The notes: generated by a model not told the origin, from the sequence alone. A stretch of 25,241 nucleotides of DNA from a virus (IMGVR_UViG_2547132488_000009:1-25241), one strand, 5' to 3'; positions 1 through 21,841 are shown, counted from the first letter of the stretch. Program-made: numbers and translations.

Positions 1-378
1 AATTTCAAAAGCATCAATGACAAATGGGGGCATCATATGGGTGATCAAGTCATAGTAATGGTTACCAGAATAATAAAAAAATCCATCAGGAAAGAGGATA
101 TATTAGGGCGCTTAGGCGGTGAGGAGTTCGGTATTATCATTAAAGGTAATACTCAAAAGCTCTTGCTATCAATTGCAGAGCGAATCAGAAAAAACATTGA
201 AGAGCAATGCTCGGAAAAATTATTATCGCATGGACCTGAGAAAATAACTGTCAGTATTGGTTGCTTTACTTCAAAAGAGAATAATCTCAGTCCATCTGAA
301 ATGTTAGTCAATGCCGATAAAGCGTTATATCAAGCCAAAAGAACCGGAAAAAACAAGGTGATAACTCACTCAAAATAA
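1..378 (+). CDS. Diguanylate cyclase, GGDEF domain C-terminal part (5' end lies outside the window)
   Basis: Frame is open from position 1 (NFKSINDKWGHHMGDQ...). It contains a GGEEF active-site motif preceded by an RxxD I-site (RKED) at the usual spacing, and a C-terminal ALYQAKRTGKNKV motif typical of GGDEF domains. The region is markedly AT-rich. Confidence 0.8.
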   Translation, partial: NFKSINDKWGHHMGDQVIVMVTRIIKKSIRKEDILGRLGGEEFGIIIKGNTQKLLLSIAERIRKNIEEQCSEKLLSHGPEKITVSIGCFTSKENNLSPSEMLVNADKALYQAKRTGKNKVITHSK

Positions 379-583
379 ACACCTTTTTAAAATACAGCCC
401 CAATAAACTGCAGAATATTATCCCATATAATATCCTGCTGTTCGTAATGCACTATTCGATAATGGGTCCTGTTGGCCATTCAATATCCGGTGCAGTTGTT
501 GTATTAACACGGTTCAGCAACACCCGATACTTCTTCCAGGCTTCCACCACCAGCACGACAAGATGCCGCATACAGTGACCCAG

Positions 584-778
584 TCAGTCCAGTTTCCAGA
601 CAACCAGTGCGTCACCTTTTTGAAGGCGCTTTAAAGCACGTTTTAATCCAGGTCGGCCTGTCCTTATTCCGCTTAATTTATCTTCAAATATTTGTTCACA
701 TCCTGCACAAACAAGAGCGTTTCGTTGCAGGTCTGTATTCTGGTCATTTGTTGATACCCTTACATAGCCAATCAGCAC
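584..778 (-). pseudogene. pin: Pin/Gin/Hin-family serine DNA invertase, N-terminal fragment only (about 64 codons, truncated)
   Basis: From a GTG start at 778 (GGGAGA Shine-Dalgarno about 6 nt upstream) it reads LIGYVRVSTNDQNTDLQRNALVCAGCEQIFEDKLSG...GDALVVWKLD, the invertase catalytic N-terminus with the active-site Ser region. A stop follows directly after KLD, and none of the three minus frames of 379..583 encodes the expected RLGRS... continuation. Confidence 0.85.
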
Positions 779-832
779 GCTGAATCTCCCGTCCAAAAGC
801 ACAAATCATGCCATGCAGGCCAGAAACCGCCA

Positions 833-858
833 TTATCTAAAACCTCGGTTTACAGGAA
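833..858. promoter_or_regulatory. gix/pix-type 26-bp inversion crossover site (left)
   Basis: TTATCTAAAACC-TC-GGTTTACAGGAA: two 12-bp half-sites around a central dinucleotide, differing by one base from the Mu gixL sequence as I recall it. It is the inverted partner of the site at 3886..3911. Confidence 0.8.
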
Positions 859-1803
859 ACGGTAAATCAGGCTTCTGGCGCATTACAGAAAAACCAGAAC
901 GGCGCAGATATTCCGGGAAAAGATACCTTCACCAAAAACATTGGTGCCTGCCGCGCATATAGCGCATGGCTGAATATTGGTGGCGATAGTCAGGTCTGGA
1001 CAACTGCGCAATTTATTTCGTGGCTGGAGAGTCAGGGGGCATTTAACCATCCTTACTGGATGTGCAAAGGCTCATGGGCTTATGCAAATAATAAGGTTAT
1101 TACAGATACAGGTTGCGGAAATATTTGTCTTGCAGGTGCTGTGGTGGAAGTTATTGGCACTCGCGGCGCAATGACCATACGCGTTACTACGCCGAGCACG
1201 TCCAGCGGTGGCGGAATTACTAACGCTCAATTCACTTATATTAATCATGGTGATGCTTACGCTCCTGGCTGGCGACGAGACTACAACACGAAAAACCAGC
1301 AGCCTGCATTTGCTTTAGGGCAAACAGGACGCAGGGTCGCAAATGATAAAGCTGTTGGCTGGAACTGGAATAGCGGTGTTTATGATGCAGATATCAGTGG
1401 TGCATCGACATTAATCCTCCACTTCAATATGAATGCGGGGAGTTGCCCTGCTGTACAGTTCCGCGTGAATTACAGGAACGGCGGTATTTTTTATCGTTCA
1501 GCGCGTGATGGTTATGGCTTTGAAGCTAACTGGTCAGAGTTTTACACCACAACACGCAAACCCTCTGCGGGGGATGTTGGTGCATATACGCAGGCAGAAT
1601 GTAACTCAAGGTTTATTACAGGTATTCGCCTTGGCGGTCTGTCATCTGTTCAGACATGGAAAGGCCCCGGCTGGTCTGACAGGTCAGGTTATGTCGTTAC
1701 GGGTTCAGTTAACGGAAACCGTGCTGAATTAATTGATACAACTCAGGCAAGGCCAATTCAGTATTGCATTAATGGGACGTGGTATAACGCGGGGAGTATT
1801 TAA
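841..1803 (+). CDS. Alternative side-tail-fibre C-terminal cassette, silent in this orientation (no start codon of its own)
   Basis: The frame is open from the stop codon inside the left crossover site and reads NLGLQETVNQASGALQKN..., the same junction peptide as Stf at the right site. It ends ...RPIQYCINGTWYNAGSI, parallel to the expressed Stf end ...RPIQKYINGTWYNVVQV. Confidence 0.75.
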   Translation, partial: NLGLQETVNQASGALQKNQNGADIPGKDTFTKNIGACRAYSAWLNIGGDSQVWTTAQFISWLESQGAFNHPYWMCKGSWAYANNKVITDTGCGNICLAGAVVEVIGTRGAMTIRVTTPSTSSGGGITNAQFTYINHGDAYAPGWRRDYNTKNQQPAFALGQTGRRVANDKAVGWNWNSGVYDADISGASTLILHFNMNAGSCPAVQFRVNYRNGGIFYRSARDGYGFEANWSEFYTTTRKPSAGDVGAYTQAECNSRFITGIRLGGLSSVQTWKGPGWSDRSGYVVTGSVNGNRAELIDTTQARPIQYCINGTWYNAGSI

Positions 1804-1805
1804 CG

Positions 1806-2339
1806 ATGATGCACTTAAAAAACATTACTGCTGGCAACCCTAAAACAAAAGAGCAATACCAGCTAACAAAGCAATTTAACATCAAATGGCTTTATTCAGA
1901 TGATGGAAAAAACTGGTATGAGGAACAAAAGAATTTCCAGCCAGACACTTTGAAAATGGTCTATGACCATAACGGCGTTATTATTTGTATTGAAAAGGAT
2001 GTTTCAGCAATTAATCCAGAGGGTGCAAGCGTCGTTGAATTACCTGATATTACAGCAAATCGCCGGGCTGATATTTCGGGGAAATGGATGTTCAAAGATG
2101 GCGTAGTGATAAAGCGAACTTATACCGAGGAAGAGCAGAGGCAACAAGCGGAAAATGAAAAGCAAAGCCTGTTGCAACTTGTCAGGGATAAAACCCAGCT
2201 ATGGGACTCACAGCTACGGCTGGGCATCATTTCCGACGAGAATAAACAAAAATTAACCGAGTGGATGCTCTATGCGCAGAAAGTCGAATCTACAGACACT
2301 TCCGGCCTGCCAGTAACGTTTCCCGAACAACCAGAATGA
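1806..2339 (+). CDS. tfa: Tail fibre assembly protein Tfa, partner of the silent cassette
   Basis: 177 aa starting [40 protein letters not shown], the conserved Tfa N-terminus. It starts 2 nt after the cassette stop. Confidence 0.85.
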   Translation: MMHLKNITAGNPKTKEQYQLTKQFNIKWLYSDDGKNWYEEQKNFQPDTLKMVYDHNGVIICIEKDVSAINPEGASVVELPDITANRRADISGKWMFKDGVVIKRTYTEEEQRQQAENEKQSLLQLVRDKTQLWDSQLRLGIISDENKQKLTEWMLYAQKVESTDTSGLPVTFPEQPE

Positions 2340-2342
2340 GAG

Positions 2343-2362
2343 AAGGCCCGCTATCGGGCCTT
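2343..2362. terminator. Hairpin between the convergent tfa genes (possible bidirectional terminator)
   Basis: AAGGCCCG-CTAT-CGGGCCTT, a perfect 8-bp stem with 4-nt loop, followed on the plus strand by AATTTTTA. Confidence 0.5.
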
Positions 2363-2367
2363 AATTT

Positions 2368-2895
2368 TTACTCTGGTTTTTGTGGCCATTCAGGATTTGC
2401 CGTATCCACACGGCTGACCAGAACACTGTAGCGTTCCCATGCTTCCAGTCGTGTGCGTTCCTCGTCTGTTGCCATATTCAGCCTGACAGCGCGTTCCAGC
2501 GGTTGGATGACTGATTCAGCTTCGGAAAGCAATGCGGCCTTTTGTGATTCGGCCTGTTGTTGTTGCTCGTCTGCCGTATAAATCCGTTTAACCACAGCTC
2601 CGTCCCTAAACATCCACTTACCGGAATCATCAGCGCAGCGGTTGGCTGTAATATCTGGAACCTCAACGACGCTATAACCTTCAGGGTTAAGCGTGGAGGC
2701 ATCTTTGGTGATGGCGACAATAATATTATTTGCATCGTAAACAATCTTTATTGTGTCTGGCTGAAAGTTTTTCACTTCCTCATACCAGTTTTTTCCGTCT
2801 TCGGACCATAACCAGATAACATCAAAATTCTTTGTTAGCTGATATTGTTCTTTTGTTTTTGGATTTCCAGACTTAATATTTTTTAAATGCTGCAT
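2368..2895 (-). CDS. tfa: Tail fibre assembly protein Tfa, partner of the expressed fibre C-terminus
   Basis: 175 aa starting [40 protein letters not shown]. It is a paralogue of the plus-strand tfa with a divergent C-terminal half and overlaps the stf stop. Confidence 0.85.
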
Positions 2896-2898
2896 AAA

Positions 2899-5472
2899 TT
2901 ACACCTGTACGACGTTATACCATGTGCCATTGATGTATTTTTGTATTGGTCTGAATACTGCCGGATCATCGCCATCAACTGCACCGATAATGCCAAGCCC
3001 CGTAATTGCATGACCTGATTTCTCATACATCACGCCTTTTTGCATAGTCTGAACAACACGTGTACCAAGTCGGACATCTCTCACATAACGTGAGTCAAAA
3101 TTACCATAATTGCCGGGAATAACTTGCGCACCGCAAAGCCAGTTGCCATTGTTGTCCATGTACGCCTGACCATCGGTGCCATTGGCTGTCCTTGAGTTAT
3201 TAATCATGTAGATGCCAAATTGCTTATTCCCCAGTCCACCAATCATAAATTTGCGATCAGCGTGGTCCTGACGAAGTAATGCCTGCGCACCATCGGTGGA
3301 TACCGCATTGCGTCCCAAAATAACATTCTGGTCACGCATATGAATCCACATGCCGGTACTACTGTTAATTGCAAAACGGTTTGCAAATATATCCCCTGTA
3401 ACATCAAGACCATGCCCCATGCTTATCCGACCAGTTCTGAGATTAAGCGTAAAGGGGCGTAGTGGCCCTATATCACCATTTTCTCCCTCATTCTCTCGTG
3501 TAGGGATGATATGCAGGCATTCTTCAGAACGACGAAAAATAGCACCAAAAGATGAATTAAATATCCTCAGTGCATTGACTGTCGATATTTTTACTTCACT
3601 GCTGAAAAGGGCTTTAACAAGGACAGACAAAGCATCCCATTTAAGAGTCATCAGGTCTTTTGTTGTGGTGCTCTGGCGGCTTCTCCATTTGAAATATTCA
3701 TTGCCGTTGTCGCCTGTTTCAAACCACATGTATGAATCAGTGTCGCTGTCGGCATTATTTTTAAAACCAATCTTTGCCCAGTCAGTATTTCTAATCCAGG
3801 CAAGGATTGAGTCGTTTTCAAAAGTAAGCCCACCGGACAAGGTATCGCCATTCTTTTGCACGGCGTTCCTGGCCCTGTTTACCGTTTCCTGTAAACCGAG
3901 GTATTCGATAACGGCAGCAACGGTCGATTTCGCAAGAATATCCCGCCCGACTTTTGTCAGGGTTGCCAGGCTGGCGACATCATTCCCCGTAAAATACGGA
4001 AACCTGTCTGCCGCAGTAGCAAGCCCGGCCAGCGCCGTCAGGGTGGCATCTTTCGGTTGCTTACCCGCAAGCGCGTTAGTCATGGTGGTCGCAAAATTCG
4101 GGTCGTTTCCCAGCGCCGCCGCTAACTCGTTCAGCGTATTCAGTGCGTCAGGTGACGAATCTACAAGGGCGGCAATCGCAGCCATAACGAAAGCCGTGCT
4201 TGCGATTTGGGTATTATTAGTTCCCTGTCGCGCAGTTGGCGTTGTTGGTGTTCCGGTCAGTGCCGGGCTGTTTAATGGGGCTTTCTTGTTTGTTTCATCC
4301 ATTACCGCCTTAACCGCTTTCGATGTCGCGGCCAGTGTTTCAGACGTGCTGTTGGTATCACTACTGAGTTGTACTATCCCCTTTTTCGTCGTACTCGCAT
4401 CCTCAAGCGCCACAGCGGATGCAATATCCTCTGCCCGTTTTGCTGCCGTCCCGGCGCGCGTTGCTGCGGATTCTGCCGCACTTTTGCTCTGTGCTGCCGC
4501 CGTCGCACTGCCAGCTGCCTCTGTCGCCTTCGTGGATGCCGTCGTGGCGCTGCCTTTCGCTGCTGACGCCTGTTTAGTCGCCTCATCTTTTGAAGCAGAC
4601 GCAGATGATGCCGATGACGCCGCCGAACTGGCGGACGATGCGGCTGCCGTTTTTGAGGATTCGGCACGGGTTTCCGACGCTTTCGCATTCGTCTCAGATG
4701 TCTTCGCTGCGGAAGCAGACCTCGCAGCTGCAGTGGCCTGTTCAGTGACTTCGCCAGCCTTCGTTGTGGCTGTTGAAGCGGACGATGCAGCGCTTTCTGC
4801 CGATTTTTCAGCGGCGGTAACGCTGGCTGCCGCATTCGTTTCTGACGTTTTCGCTGCACCGGCACTGGTGGCCGCCGCGCTTTTTGAGGACTCTGCAGCA
4901 GCAGCACTTTTCGATGCCTCAGAGGCTTTTGCTGATGCCGTTCCTGCGCTGGAAGACGCTGACTGAGCCGACGACACGGCCTGTCCGGCTGACGTGCTGG
5001 CTGCGCGTGCTGAGTCTGCAGCATCAGTCGCATGGGTTGCCGCCTCACGGGCTGATGTGCTGGCATCGCCGGCTGACTTCTTCGCGGCTGCCGTGTTCTG
5101 TGCCACTGCGGACGCGTTACGCGCCACCTCTTCCACCATCACTTCAAAACGGCGCAGTGCCTCCGGCATAACATCCTCTTCCGTCATGGCACCGAGAAAA
5201 TCATTCAGCGTACCGGGTTGAGAATCTTCATACACGGTGATGGTCCCGGCATGTGACGGCGGGAATCCCTCCACCAACAGACTGACGCTGTACTGACCGT
5301 ACTCAACGTCCATACTGTAACGCCCGGCTTCATCCGGATTTTCAGAGGCCACCGTGTTCACCACAACCGTGGTGCTGTTACGTTTTGCTTTGAGCTGAAT
5401 GGTGCAGTTCTGTATCGGTTTTCCTGCACCGTCTTTCAGCACGCCTGAGATTTTTACTGCTGCCATATCCAC
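2899..5472 (-). CDS. stf: Side tail fibre protein Stf (constant N-terminal part plus the currently joined variable C-terminus)
   Basis: 857 aa. The N-terminus (MDMAAVKISGVLKDGAGKPIQNCTIQLKAKRNSTTVVVNTV...) matches lambda Stf as I recall it. It has a long Ala/Ser/Thr-rich central region and crosses the right crossover site near residue 525. The start could instead be the third codon (5466). Confidence 0.9.
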   Translation of the reverse strand: MDMAAVKISGVLKDGAGKPIQNCTIQLKAKRNSTTVVVNTVASENPDEAGRYSMDVEYGQYSVSLLVEGFPPSHAGTITVYEDSQPGTLNDFLGAMTEEDVMPEALRRFEVMVEEVARNASAVAQNTAAAKKSAGDASTSAREAATHATDAADSARAASTSAGQAVSSAQSASSSAGTASAKASEASKSAAAAESSKSAAATSAGAAKTSETNAAASVTAAEKSAESAASSASTATTKAGEVTEQATAAARSASAAKTSETNAKASETRAESSKTAAASSASSAASSASSASASKDEATKQASAAKGSATTASTKATEAAGSATAAAQSKSAAESAATRAGTAAKRAEDIASAVALEDASTTKKGIVQLSSDTNSTSETLAATSKAVKAVMDETNKKAPLNSPALTGTPTTPTARQGTNNTQIASTAFVMAAIAALVDSSPDALNTLNELAAALGNDPNFATTMTNALAGKQPKDATLTALAGLATAADRFPYFTGNDVASLATLTKVGRDILAKSTVAAVIEYLGLQETVNRARNAVQKNGDTLSGGLTFENDSILAWIRNTDWAKIGFKNNADSDTDSYMWFETGDNGNEYFKWRSRQSTTTKDLMTLKWDALSVLVKALFSSEVKISTVNALRIFNSSFGAIFRRSEECLHIIPTRENEGENGDIGPLRPFTLNLRTGRISMGHGLDVTGDIFANRFAINSSTGMWIHMRDQNVILGRNAVSTDGAQALLRQDHADRKFMIGGLGNKQFGIYMINNSRTANGTDGQAYMDNNGNWLCGAQVIPGNYGNFDSRYVRDVRLGTRVVQTMQKGVMYEKSGHAITGLGIIGAVDGDDPAVFRPIQKYINGTWYNVVQV
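3886..3911. promoter_or_regulatory. gix/pix-type 26-bp inversion crossover site (right), inside the stf coding sequence
   Basis: TTCCTGTAAACC-GA-GGTATTCGATAA. One half-site is identical to the left site in inverted orientation and the central dinucleotide is complementary, as required for inversion. It encodes the EYLGLQETVN segment of Stf. Confidence 0.8.
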
Positions 5473-5475
5473 TCC

Positions 5476-5504
5476 ACAAAAAAGCCCGCCTGAACCGGCG
5501 GGCT
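5476..5504 (-). terminator. Intrinsic terminator downstream of lom
   Basis: On the minus strand, AGCCCGCC-GGTTCA-GGCGGGCT (8-bp GC-rich stem) is followed by UUUUUUGU. It ends 3 nt before the stf start codon. Confidence 0.7.
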
Positions 5505-18330: not shown

Positions 18331-20391
18331 TTACGCCGTACATTTCACCAGACCGCGGTGATCAACTGGCGCGACACCTGCGTCAATACGCACTTTCGTT
18401 GTCACGCCATCCACACTGAAGCCCTCCATCTGATCAATATATGGCGTATCCACACCGTTGAGATAAGCCACTTCGATGGTATCCGTACCTTTCGCCGCAG
18501 CCAGATAAAAGGTGGTCTGGCTGTTATCATCAAGACGAGGCTCTGCAATAACGGTCGCAAAATCTTTCACCGGGTTAATAATACCGGCGTTAATGTCAGC
18601 CCCCTTGACACTTGAGGAGCGAATGACCTGGTTAGCAACAGACTCCATCGCTGTCGGTACCAGTACGAACGCAGGACGAATATTCAGATGACGCTCCCCC
18701 TCTTTCTGAACGCGCATCAACTGACGGGCTTTATCCAGTGATGCCACGTCCATTGCAGCGTTCTCCAGTACGTTTGCATGTTTCGCTTTATCGAACAGGC
18801 TCACATTATCCGTGGAGATTTTCGGGTTAGATGTCAGAATGGCATAAACCAGATCGGCAATCGTGGATTTTGCCGCACGCCCCAGTTTCATCGGAACATC
18901 GGTCAGCATATTCAGATCATCGTTGATAATGGCCTGACGGGTGATGCTGAACAGTTCACCATAGGTCGCCAGTGCAATCGTGGCCTGTTTATCTCCGGTG
19001 GTGACGTATTTATATTCCGCCCCCTCACGCACCTGACGCAGAGCACTGAAGCCCCCCATACCCACACGATGGGCAATTTTAAAATCAGACAACTGACCTT
19101 TCCGGGTCCACTGTTCGTAAGTCTCAGGGGCTTCTTCCCATCCCTGCAGAATGGCTTTGTTCGCGACATCCAGCAGAATATTACCGAAATCAGACGTACT
19201 GTGCGTGAACGCTGCCCCGACCATCTGCATCGGGTTATACCCGGAAACCCCAATCCCCCTTTCTGTCAGTGACATTCGGGCATATTCACGCAGGGTCATC
19301 CCGTTATAGACGTTATCCTGTTCACGCTCAGCAAATCCGGCACGCGCCATCAGCGCCTGACGGATCCCGTCCCCCACAAAATTACCGTTTCCAGCATAAA
19401 TATGGGCCGGGGTATTTTTATTTGATGGTGAAAATTCCTTACCCATTTCGTTAAGTAATTTCTCACGGGCCTGCTCAAGCGAGCACTCCGGATCGGAAAG
19501 ACAACTGGCCTGCAATGTCTGATAGCGCCCGCCAAACATACCAAACAGTTCATTAATACCACTCACACGTGCTTTTTGCTCTGCCAGTACCTGCGCACGG
19601 ATACTGCTTTCATCTGTGGAAGGTGCATTTGTGGTAGTCGCGGTTGTGGCAACCGGAGCCGTAGTCTGATCCTGTGTCTGAGATGCAGTATTTTTGTTTT
19701 CAGGTTCACGCGTTGCACTGTTGCGTGGCGGAATAATCATATTTCGAATGGATTCCGGCATTTTTTTAAATTCCTCTGTACGTTTTGACTGAATACATGC
19801 CATTGCCTTAACTTCCGGTGTCACCTGGTCAGCAAATCCGTGTGCCAGACATTCGGCACCGGACATCCAGGTTTCATCCGCCAGCATGGCAGCAATTTCA
19901 TCGGTGGTTTTCCCGGTTTTCTGCGCATAAGCAGGCAACAGGACCGACTCAACTTTATCAAGCAGGTCGGCATAATCACGCATATCATCCGCATCGCCAC
20001 CACTCACTCCCCATGGTTTATGGATCATCATGAATGCGTTTTCCGGCATGATGACGGGATCACCCACCATTGCAATGACCGATGCCATGGATGCCGCGAC
20101 ACCATCCACATAAACAGTGATGGACGCCCCATGATTTTTCAGCGCATTAAAAATGGCGATGCCTTCAAAGACATCGCCACCCGGTGAATTGATATGGAGA
20201 TTAATGTGGGTGATATTACCCAGCGCATTCAGATCGCTGACAAACTGCTTCGCCGTAACTCCCCAGAAACCAATCTCGTCATAGATATAAATATCTGCGT
20301 CACTTTTATGACCCGCCTTCATTCTGAACCAAGAATTATTCTTCAGGCTGGCCTTCGGTTCGCCGCGAAACCACGCGTTCTGTTTCAGCAT
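18331..20391 (-). CDS. Single-ORF prohead protease (ClpP/S49-like), linker/scaffold region and major capsid protein (HK97 fold)
   Basis: The start is taken at 20391 (MLKQNAWF, GGAGGTGG upstream). The N-terminus has ClpP-like protease motifs (INSPGGDVFEGIAIFNAL...DGVAASMASVIAMVGD...HKPWG), the centre is a Thr/Ala/Pro-rich linker, and the C-terminal roughly 350 aa is capsid-like (...KVRIDAGVAPVDHRGLVK). Confidence 0.8.
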   Translation of the reverse strand: MLKQNAWFRGEPKASLKNNSWFRMKAGHKSDADIYIYDEIGFWGVTAKQFVSDLNALGNITHINLHINSPGGDVFEGIAIFNALKNHGASITVYVDGVAASMASVIAMVGDPVIMPENAFMMIHKPWGVSGGDADDMRDYADLLDKVESVLLPAYAQKTGKTTDEIAAMLADETWMSGAECLAHGFADQVTPEVKAMACIQSKRTEEFKKMPESIRNMIIPPRNSATREPENKNTASQTQDQTTAPVATTATTTNAPSTDESSIRAQVLAEQKARVSGINELFGMFGGRYQTLQASCLSDPECSLEQAREKLLNEMGKEFSPSNKNTPAHIYAGNGNFVGDGIRQALMARAGFAEREQDNVYNGMTLREYARMSLTERGIGVSGYNPMQMVGAAFTHSTSDFGNILLDVANKAILQGWEEAPETYEQWTRKGQLSDFKIAHRVGMGGFSALRQVREGAEYKYVTTGDKQATIALATYGELFSITRQAIINDDLNMLTDVPMKLGRAAKSTIADLVYAILTSNPKISTDNVSLFDKAKHANVLENAAMDVASLDKARQLMRVQKEGERHLNIRPAFVLVPTAMESVANQVIRSSSVKGADINAGIINPVKDFATVIAEPRLDDNSQTTFYLAAAKGTDTIEVAYLNGVDTPYIDQMEGFSVDGVTTKVRIDAGVAPVDHRGLVKCTA

Positions 20392-21841
20392 TACCACCTC
20401 CTTTATCGCAGGCCGGATCGGTATCAAACACCAGATCCAGCCTGCGGTTTTCATCAATTTCGGCCTTGCGCCGACGTTTAACATCATCCGGATTACGACC
20501 ACTGGCGCGCACCCAGTCTGATTCTGTTGCCGCACCACCACGAATCTGGATTTTCCAGGCTTCAGCTTCCTTGACAGGATCAATCCACGGCATGACCGGA
20601 CCAGAATATGTTGCGTTATATAATGTTTTTATATCCACATCCGACGGAATTTTCAGCAACCCCGCGGCAACCACCATATTCAGCCATGCCCGGTACACCG
20701 GACGGGTTACAGCACCAATAAAACAGTCCTGCAGGATCAGATAGCCATCGGTGGACTCAACCAGCTCCTGTCGCTGGGAACTGTAGGTACCGTTATAGTT
20801 ACGTGCTGCACTGGAAAAACTCAGACGAGTGCCCGCCGCCATGGCCCGCAACTGACCATTACGAAAAGTTTCCAGATTAGGGTTAGGCCGATCAGATTTG
20901 ACCATGCCAATATCTTCCCCCTTACGCAGATCGTCATAAATAATGCCGGGAGTGATATGCAGTTCCCGATCATTATCTTTATTCGTCACAGGTTCCTCAT
21001 AATCCTGCCCGTCTCCTTTACGAATATACAGCCCCAGTGCCGCAGCAATGCGCGCCGCTACCAGCTCAGCATCTTCATATTCCTTAAGCGCACTGATCCG
21101 CATCAGCACACCTGACAACATGGATGTGCCACGCGTCTGATGAAGGCGGCGGGTAAACTTCAGATGCACCATATTTTCAGCGGCGATCTCTTTGGTTTCG
21201 CTCTGTCGCCCGGTAACCGGATAATTTTTATAAACCAGGTATTTTTTCGGCCTGCCCCATTCATCCAGAAAAACCCCCTGATTCATTCCCGCAGACTCAT
21301 CACTGAGCATGGGCACAAAATCCGGCTCCATTGCCTCGAGCCAGAAAGGCACACCGGCAGTCCGCGCCAGCCCGGCACCTGCGCCTCTGACCATCTGGGC
21401 AAACACTTCTCCATCACGTAACCAGGTACGCAACAGCAGACGTTCGAGCATGGGGCGCGTATGCTGCCCGGTCACATCCGGACTGACAGACCATTCCGCC
21501 CACAAACGACGGATAATCATTGCCAGCTCTGTAGCCATATCACCATTTTTCAGTAATGGTTGTGGTTCAACAATGATCCCCTTTGCACCAATCACCCGCT
21601 CCTCAAGTTTGTCGAAAACACCGATTACCAGGTCATGATTGATGTCCAGAAAACGGGCCTGTTCCCGCAGAGAAACCGCCCCGTACTTACTGAGCTGGTC
21701 GGCAGAACGGTTTTCCCGTCGGGCTTTGTGTGTGCGGGTGGGTTTCACGGCCTCATAAGCGCGAATTAACGCCCTTGAGCGCAACCTCGCAGCTTTCCAG
21801 CCGGGAGAAAAAACACCAATCACATCATCAAGAATTGCCAT
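20336..21841 (-). CDS. Portal protein
   Basis: 501 aa, between the gpW-like gene and the protease-capsid gene, with a TGATG stop/start overlap with the upstream gene. Size and synteny fit a portal. Confidence 0.72.
   Translation of the reverse strand: MAILDDVIGVFSPGWKAARLRSRALIRAYEAVKPTRTHKARRENRSADQLSKYGAVSLREQARFLDINHDLVIGVFDKLEERVIGAKGIIVEPQPLLKNGDMATELAMIIRRLWAEWSVSPDVTGQHTRPMLERLLLRTWLRDGEVFAQMVRGAGAGLARTAGVPFWLEAMEPDFVPMLSDESAGMNQGVFLDEWGRPKKYLVYKNYPVTGRQSETKEIAAENMVHLKFTRRLHQTRGTSMLSGVLMRISALKEYEDAELVAARIAAALGLYIRKGDGQDYEEPVTNKDNDRELHITPGIIYDDLRKGEDIGMVKSDRPNPNLETFRNGQLRAMAAGTRLSFSSAARNYNGTYSSQRQELVESTDGYLILQDCFIGAVTRPVYRAWLNMVVAAGLLKIPSDVDIKTLYNATYSGPVMPWIDPVKEAEAWKIQIRGGAATESDWVRASGRNPDDVKRRRKAEIDENRRLDLVFDTDPACDKGGGNAETERVVSRRTEGQPEE

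Follow-up and report, generated by a model that had tools for sequence, protein, structure and literature searches.

The DNA stretch IMGVR_UViG_2547132488_000009:1-25241 (the window, i.e. all 25,241 nucleotides that were analysed) is Escherichia coli DNA and carries a lambda-like prophage on the bio side of the lambda attachment region, adjoining a diguanylate cyclase (DGC) gene. The distal part of its side tail fibre gene, stf, lies in a segment of 3,051 bp that is bracketed by inverted recombination sites of the gix type and holds two alternative receptor-binding tips. This locus is probably a fibre switch of the Gin-type serine-invertase kind, homologous to the G segment of phage Mu, mounted on a lambda-like Stf, imported from a P88-type phage and flipped in trans.

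The outstanding inverted pair in the first 6 kb of the window (n = 1) consists of two arms of 38 nucleotides (nt) each, which are 92% complementary, are spaced by 3,011 nt according to the repeat finder and have a perfect run of 25 bp in common. Each arm bears one gix-type site (Table 1). When the gix sequence of Mu, as it stands at the G boundaries annotated in the Mu record, was used as a query with at most three mismatches, these two sites were the only matches in the 25-kb window, where shuffled sequences give an expectation of 0.00. The 26-bp cores of the left and right sites match at 24 of 26 positions and have the central dinucleotide TC in common. The right site differs from Mu gix at two positions, both located in the outer half-site. 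An initial annotation of this DNA had described two near-perfect inverted 26-bp gix-type sites about 3.05 kb apart, one of them within stf, and on this the repeat finder and the gix search agree.

The stf gene runs on the minus strand from 5472 to 2899 and encodes 857 amino acids (aa) in the open reading frame (ORF) call of the window. Inversion in silico, with cuts between 846 and 847 and between 3897 and 3898 and the span 847-3897 reversed, yielded an intact Stf ORF of 843 aa in which residues 1-532 were unchanged. After residue 532 the inverted Stf continues with VNQASGALQKNQNGADIPGKDTF..., and the native Stf with VNRARNAVQKNGDT.... The crossover dinucleotide of the right site falls in codon 525 of stf, so that the earlier estimate of a constant part of about 525 aa is right. 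Both orientations had been predicted to fuse differing C-termini in frame to the constant N-terminus of Stf; the frame was indeed kept upon inversion, with both ORFs intact. Natural genomes also hold intact ORFs of both kinds: the fused Stf ORF was uninterrupted in all seven loci checked, in both orientations, with 857-1003 aa for the S tip and 945-989 aa for the S' tip.

The cassette that is joined to the constant part in the window is of the Mu S type. It shows 70% aa identity to the variable part of Mu S and 91% to the fibre of P88, and it aligns with the Mu S chain PDB 5YVQ_A (E 5e-148) over chain residues 171-502. The silent cassette on the opposite strand is of the Mu S' type and matches the Mu S' structure PDB 8JU3 (E 2e-213) over chain residues 171-488; Pfam gp37_C also matches it. 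Its open frame spans 844-1803, lacks a start codon and follows directly upon a TAA at 838-840 within the left site. Both cassettes align to the solved Mu chains from residue 171, which is the known crossover point of Mu. Since the expressed cassette is S-type and the silent one S'-type, the window is in a G(+)-like state. Behind each cassette lies a chaperone gene and the two units converge within the segment, as in other members of the family. The two Caudo_TAP chaperones are 57% identical to each other. The claim that each cassette has its own divergent tfa chaperone was thereby confirmed, and alignment to known pairs matched the cassettes and chaperones to Mu S/U and S'/U'.

Table 1. Features of the fibre locus and its surroundings (positions in the window).
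Feature	Position	Strand	Basis
Left gix-type site, invertase side	833-858	+	core TTATCTAAAACCTCGGTTTACAGGAA; 1 mismatch to Mu gix; identical to P88 counterpart; within arm 829-866
Right gix-type site, inside stf	3886-3911	-	core TTATCGAATACCTCGGTTTACAGGAA; identical to P88 counterpart; within arm 3878-3915
Stf constant part: lambda-type N-terminal domain, Ala/Ser-rich spacer, shaft common with P2-like fibres	3898..5472	-	Pfam; lambda and P88 alignments
Expressed receptor-binding cassette, Mu S type, fused in frame to the Stf constant part	2899..3897	-	G(+)-like state; alignments in the text
Chaperone of expressed cassette, Mu U type	2368-2895	-	Pfam Caudo_TAP E 7e-38; 93.7% aa identity to Mu U; PDB 5YVQ_B E 1.5e-107
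Silent receptor-binding cassette without start, Mu S' type (G(-) type)	847..1803	+	96.2% aa identity to Mu S' variable part over 318 aa
Chaperone of silent cassette, Mu U' type	1806-2339	+	Pfam Caudo_TAP E 2e-36; 97.2% aa identity to Mu U'
Truncated Gin/Pin-type serine invertase gene (stump)	584..778	-	64 codons, then TGA (codon 65); invertase homology to about 550
Candidate Fis-dependent recombinational enhancer (sis equivalent) in stump	600..720, approximate	.	inferred from gin homology
Imported block: distal fibre shaft, G-type segment, invertase 5' end	550..4306	.	comparison with sister prophage L019; within P88-like homology 588-4403
tfa 3' remnant (last ~32 codons) of the recipient's original gene, downstream of stump fusion	452..549	-	read-through translation
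GC-rich hairpin between the convergent chaperone genes, likely terminator	2343..2362	.	terminator scan: 8-pair stem AAGGCCCGCTATCGGGCCTT and T-run; consensus match only

Judged by its sequence, the locus is a direct homologue of the Mu G segment, beyond mere resemblance. In megablast searches against phage records, most of the interval 447-4100 was matched by P88, a P2-like phage, at 94.3% nt identity, by D108 at 94.1%, P7 at 92.6%, Mu at 92.5% and P1 at 89%. The alignment with Mu is a single run from 588 to 3911 with 88% DNA identity, which stops exactly at the right site. With P88 the alignment extends from 588 to 4403 (94.1% DNA identity) and includes about 490 bp of fibre shaft upstream of the site.

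The known members of this family have an adjacent complete serine invertase of about 190 aa (193 aa for Gin) with a catalytic and a C-terminal DNA-binding domain. In the window the adjacent invertase gene is a truncated pseudogene and the locus is therefore unable to flip alone. Pfam Resolvase covers the stump with profile positions 2-73 of 145 only, and the DNA-binding domain is absent. In an alignment of the stump with gin, the P88 invertase and pinE, 187 of 195 nt (96%) were identical to the 5' end of Mu gin. A pinE-like stretch continues past the TGA to about codon 79, after which the frame enters the end of a lambdoid tfa (fusion near codon 80). The P/G-segment architecture that had been proposed for this locus is thus correct as to the layout of the segment; the stump had gone unmentioned and the enzyme in cis is dead.

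Orientation in natural genomes was studied in 5,426 complete E. coli genomes, and all counts are genomes with at least 80% query coverage. The native 5.6-kb locus was present in 23 genomes and the in-silico inverted locus in 38. In both of these searches every listed match begins at or before position 474 and hence includes the junction between stump and tfa. Using 800-bp queries, the native silent junction (stump to S' cassette) was found in 133 genomes, the inverted silent junction (stump to S cassette) in 138, at least 25 of which showed 100% identity, and the inverted expression junction (constant part to S') in 126. It had been considered that many strains might all show one orientation; both were found across public genomes.

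Closely related strains differ by precise inversions. Strain C2 has the same chromosomal context and the same 64-aa stump protein as the window with the segment inverted and one interior mismatch. The prophages of ES6 and ES1 at the lambda att site, compared over 45.9 kb, have flanks that are 99.93-99.96% identical. For EC31 and EC12, which carry the locus at a prfC-adjacent site, the flanks adjoining the sites are identical over 4,014 bp on the left and 900 bp on the right. In both pairs the 3,051-bp interior is the exact reverse complement with no mismatches, and the outer half-sites have kept their place beside the flanks. The 99.8% identity (6 mismatches) of inverted segments was considered as a sign of divergence and discarded, as all six mismatches are located in the imperfect arms of the inverted repeat and the interior is identical. 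The stump junction arose only once and is common to native and inverted genomes at two integration sites. The truncation must hence have come first, with more than one inversion after it.

The origin of the truncated arrangement was apparent from a sister prophage in the same DGC/lambda-att context (L019, strain 2020S05-013), which has a plain stf of 1,023 aa and a complete tfa of 194 aa, and no switch. Window 1-549 (99.5%) and the part from 4307 onwards are collinear with this prophage, whose tfa ends at the position of the tfa remnant of the window. This remnant is labelled by PGAP as a tail fiber assembly protein missing its N-terminus and is 98.7% identical to tfaQ-type genes. The block in between is therefore imported, the sister prophage being collinear on both sides with plain stf-tfa between. 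It took the place of the distal part of stf and of most of tfa in a simpler lambda-like prophage. The right import junction lies in the stretch of fibre shaft that is common to both parents; the left one is within the invertase gene, where this has, according to our reading of the sequences, a short microhomology to tfa. The donor was probably P88 or a phage closely related to it, and crossovers in the shared shaft and at the microhomology would have brought in the block; with a junction inside the invertase gene, the prophage would keep only the dead stump of 64 codons. In the simplest view, the invertase gene was already incomplete when the switch arrived. Alternatively, a complete gene may have been lost by a later deletion rather than having been absent at import. 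Seven clonal 2020S05-013 isolates have the DGC flank and plain stf-tfa, i.e. the arrangement before the import; they were considered as a test of orientation stability and found unusable for it.

According to the mechanism that we propose, conservative recombination between the two gix-type sites would invert the 3,051 bp. The constant 525-residue part of Stf would then be joined either to the S-type tip with the co-transcribed U-type chaperone, or to the S'-type tip with the U'-type chaperone, and the two fibres would presumably differ in receptor specificity. Judging by Mu, the S' state should reach hosts other than K-12, such as E. coli C, Shigella sonnei, Citrobacter and Enterobacter. Only the cassette that is joined to stf would be transcribed, because the other one is devoid of its own start or promoter. 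Catalysis would take place in trans by a Gin/Pin/Cin-family invertase of another prophage or of a plasmid in the same cell, and in a cell without such an invertase the orientation would be inherited as it is.

Several observations are consistent with such dependence on a foreign enzyme. Gin, Pin, Cin and Hin cross-complement each other. The sites of the window are likely to be competent, since they are identical to both sites of P88, which bears a complete invertase of 195 aa. A gin-like gene of at least 80% length was detected at the blastn level in 1,692 of the 5,426 genomes. The query for invertases in trans was a chimera of the DGC flank and the 3' half of gin; as the DGC flank is not carrier-specific, the count was limited to the 28 listed genomes that had already been identified as carriers, and 21 of these showed an extra chromosomal match to the query, which is indirect evidence for a possible source of the enzyme; C2, STEC309 and MSI001 are examples of strains with a gin-like gene. 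There is precedent for action in trans, as PinQ of prophage Qin inverts the P segment of e14 (PMC12529663), and in cultures of E. coli the resident prophages of the Mu, P2 and e14 types constantly invert their fibre segments (PMC4272514).

The stump may also have retained a cis-acting element. The Fis consensus is very degenerate and the known hin and gin sites fit it poorly. In gin, the coding region itself contains the three Fis sites of the enhancer, at about 550 bp before the start of mom (PMC3378877); by the coordinates of the Mu record this is near nt 119 of gin, equivalent to about position 660 of the window. The enhancer of Hin is 65 bp long and lies about 100 bp from hix (PMC3798978). 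The stump still covers the region of the gin enhancer, so that a putative enhancer could be present and functional there.

A number of points weigh against the proposed switching in trans. Among the long ORFs of the 25-kb window no other invertase was seen. Seven of the 28 carriers, in both orientations, had no gin-like 3' half on the chromosome by blastn; strains with no such match include MB10, 027_SK3 and ET474. This last result implies that flipping is not ongoing everywhere, unless divergent (PinQ/PinR-type) or plasmid-borne enzymes act. The enhancer is placed in the stump on the basis of homology only. The evidence for both orientations comes from comparison between genomes, and RecA-dependent exchange in the 25-bp identical core would yield the same product. 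Flipping that is episodic where an enzyme is present, with the state simply being inherited elsewhere, fits the observations.

The seven carriers in which no gin-like gene was detected could also indicate that the switch is a fossil that no longer flips, and that the two orientations have spread by homologous recombination with invertase-proficient relatives carrying the opposite segment, e.g. by crossing over within the invertase 5' end that they share or within the gix region. The invertase is dead, these prophages are highly mosaic, and the stump module is found with various head modules and at more than one integration site, all of which would agree with such a history. However, the two independent strain pairs differ only by the exact inversion of the 3,051-bp interior between flanks that are identical or at least 99.9% identical over 4-22 kb on either side, whereas recombination with a different phage is expected to leave sequence differences. 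Moreover, both orientations recur at two integration sites. We consider this explanation unlikely.

It has been reported that inversion of the e14 fibre segment by PinQ blocks the adsorption of T2 (PMC12529663). By analogy with StfE2 of e14, the switch might be kept for the benefit of the host, the alternative tips or chaperones altering the cell surface or blocking superinfecting phages. The presence of the stump junction in 536 of the 5,426 genomes would be in line with this, and such a role is compatible with flipping in trans. As the window contains an apparently complete lambda-like structural operon, a role in the host range of the virion is the simpler reading, and selection for a host benefit seems quite improbable as the explanation. 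Inversion by host RecA-dependent homologous recombination between the short inverted repeats, with no site-specific invertase, is very improbable indeed: the arms do have a perfect run in which exchange would give exactly the observed products, but 25 bp is at the lower limit for RecA-dependent exchange, so that such events would be very rare, whereas the orientations are split nearly 1:1 (23:38 for the whole locus and 133:138 at the junctions) and the sites are true gix sites that recur unchanged in an invertase-proficient phage.

The constant part of the fibre is of the lambda type. Pfam phage_tail_N (PF08400) matches Stf residues 5-137 (E 7e-70), lambda stf is 82% identical in nt to window 3899-5460, and the gene follows J and lom within a tail operon like that of lambda. 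The structural operon consists of long intact ORFs for terminase, portal, capsid, tube, tape measure, L, K, I, J, Lom and Stf; J, Lom, I, K, L, the tape measure and the tube proteins are all lambda-family, and the ten long ORFs that were scanned against Pfam were all phage structural proteins or Lom. A G-type architecture within a lambda-like Stf, as the initial annotation had it, is supported by the Mu G homology and by the phage_tail_N domain; it is a mosaic of well-known modules, and the architecture as such is not new. Mosaicism among the fibres Stf of lambda, H of P2, S of Mu and S of P1 is long established. Tail fibres are among the commonest targets of programmed inversion in large surveys (PMC9881135). 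In the phage records no entry covered at least 80% of window 3300-5472, and the lambda-type Stf joined to this cassette was seen only as prophage.

Among the known systems, the G/Gin system of Mu (and likewise D108) resembles the locus in its gix sites, in the crossover at chain residue 171 of Mu S and in the order of the S constant part, the segment [Sv-U / U'-Sv'] and the invertase. The aa identity is 96% for S', 97% for U', 94% for U and 70% for S, and the first 195 nt of the invertase gene are 96% identical. Mu differs in having a 170-aa Sc on a contractile-tail baseplate where the window has a lambda-type Stf, and the invertase of the window is a 64-codon stump. P88 (Xuanwuvirus, P2-like) is the closest relative at the DNA level and has identical recombination sites; unlike the window it has a complete invertase and a P2-type fibre N-terminus and baseplate. 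The C/Cin system of P1 and that of P7 have homologous invertible S/U cassettes (89-93% nt identity over about 80% of the query), but cin is on the other side of the invertase family tree, the fibre constant part is different and the replicon is a plasmid prophage.

The P/PinE system of e14 in E. coli K-12 likewise inverts a fibre gene in a resident prophage by a Gin-family enzyme. It was ruled out as the closest relative, since its sites (CTCTCGAAAACCTTGGTTTGGGAGAA) and cassettes differ; in addition, its segment measures 1.8 kb, pinE is intact and the tail genes are of the P2/Mu type. The Stf-Tfa system of lambda has the N-terminal domain and shaft, the place of the gene after J and lom and, as a counterpart of the remnant in the window, a lambdoid-type tfa in common with the locus, but only one fixed C-terminus and one tfa. 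Lambda stf (J02459, L011 ~1500-1530) follows the shaft of the window as far as the outer half of the right gix-type site (GTTCTTGAATACCTTGG), and the two sequences part precisely at the crossover core, so that a vestigial half-site is present at the boundary of the C-terminal domain of lambda Stf.

Some further observations were made on the fibre gene and its surroundings. The Ala/Ser/Thr-rich spacer at window 4400-5060 (Stf residues ~140-360) varies among relatives, the constant part measuring 532, 634 or 678 aa, which accounts for a length difference of about 312 bp and for the reduced identity when whole loci are aligned. At window 5483-5504 (minus strand), between lom and the start of stf, lies a strong hairpin that has a T-run and resembles a terminator; expression of stf and the switch therefore probably needs antiterminated late transcription. 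The junction of stump and tfa that occurs in 536 genomes was searched for as window 452-660 (209 bp), with at least 80% coverage. This number exceeds that of the genomes in which the present cassettes adjoin (about 270), so that the stump module may adjoin other cassette types. In strain Z0117EC0098 (L002 5899-7062) the DNA is 100% identical to window 1-4063, after which stf breaks into unrelated prophage DNA; the switch is thus held without a fibre N-terminus.

Outside the fibre region, a 750-aa ORF at window 18331-20583 combines a ClpP-type protease domain and a capsid protein domain. In the otherwise similar ES6 and ES1 prophages the head module is a different one, with an S49 protease of the lambda type, a decoration protein and a gene for the capsid; they have the tail/fibre end in common with the window. 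The DGC gene encodes a sensor-domain GGDEF protein, is 1,332 bp long (L003 4601-5932; its 3' end is window 1-378) and is situated between ybhB and the prophage end, directly beside the tfa remnant. It is missing from the prfC-site relatives EC31 and EC12, and could represent either cargo of the prophage or an islet of its own.

The stf annotation was compared with the sequence for four genomes in native orientation; in three of them PGAP describes stf as "incomplete, missing C-terminus" (L001 4888-7278; L009 24282-25778; L003 6398-7399) while the ORF is intact, and it labels the silent cassette as a separate gene or a pseudogene. These labels are artefacts of the invertible layout and a practical point for annotation.

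Invertible fibre segments are a textbook form of phage bet-hedging on host range and the switch itself is already known. What the locus adds is a clean natural transfer of a module, a P2/Mu-type switch placed onto a lambda-type fibre with both recombination endpoints mapped, and a switch that lacks its own enzyme and still occurs in either state among closely related strains. Only the orphan condition and the mapped import set it apart from the ordinary. If flipping in trans were confirmed, this would be a concrete case of one prophage depending functionally on an unrelated one in the same cell, in agreement with the recent finding on PinQ and e14, and it would bear on the prediction of the host range of induced lambdoid phages from the genome sequence. 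Tentatively, we suggest that a widespread lineage of lambda-like E. coli prophages might have carried a G-type switch without invertase ever since its acquisition, flipping only by means of the invertases of unrelated co-resident prophages or plasmids. If this were true, the host range of one phage, or a surface phenotype of its host, would be set by the other mobile elements of the cell and would freeze upon their loss.

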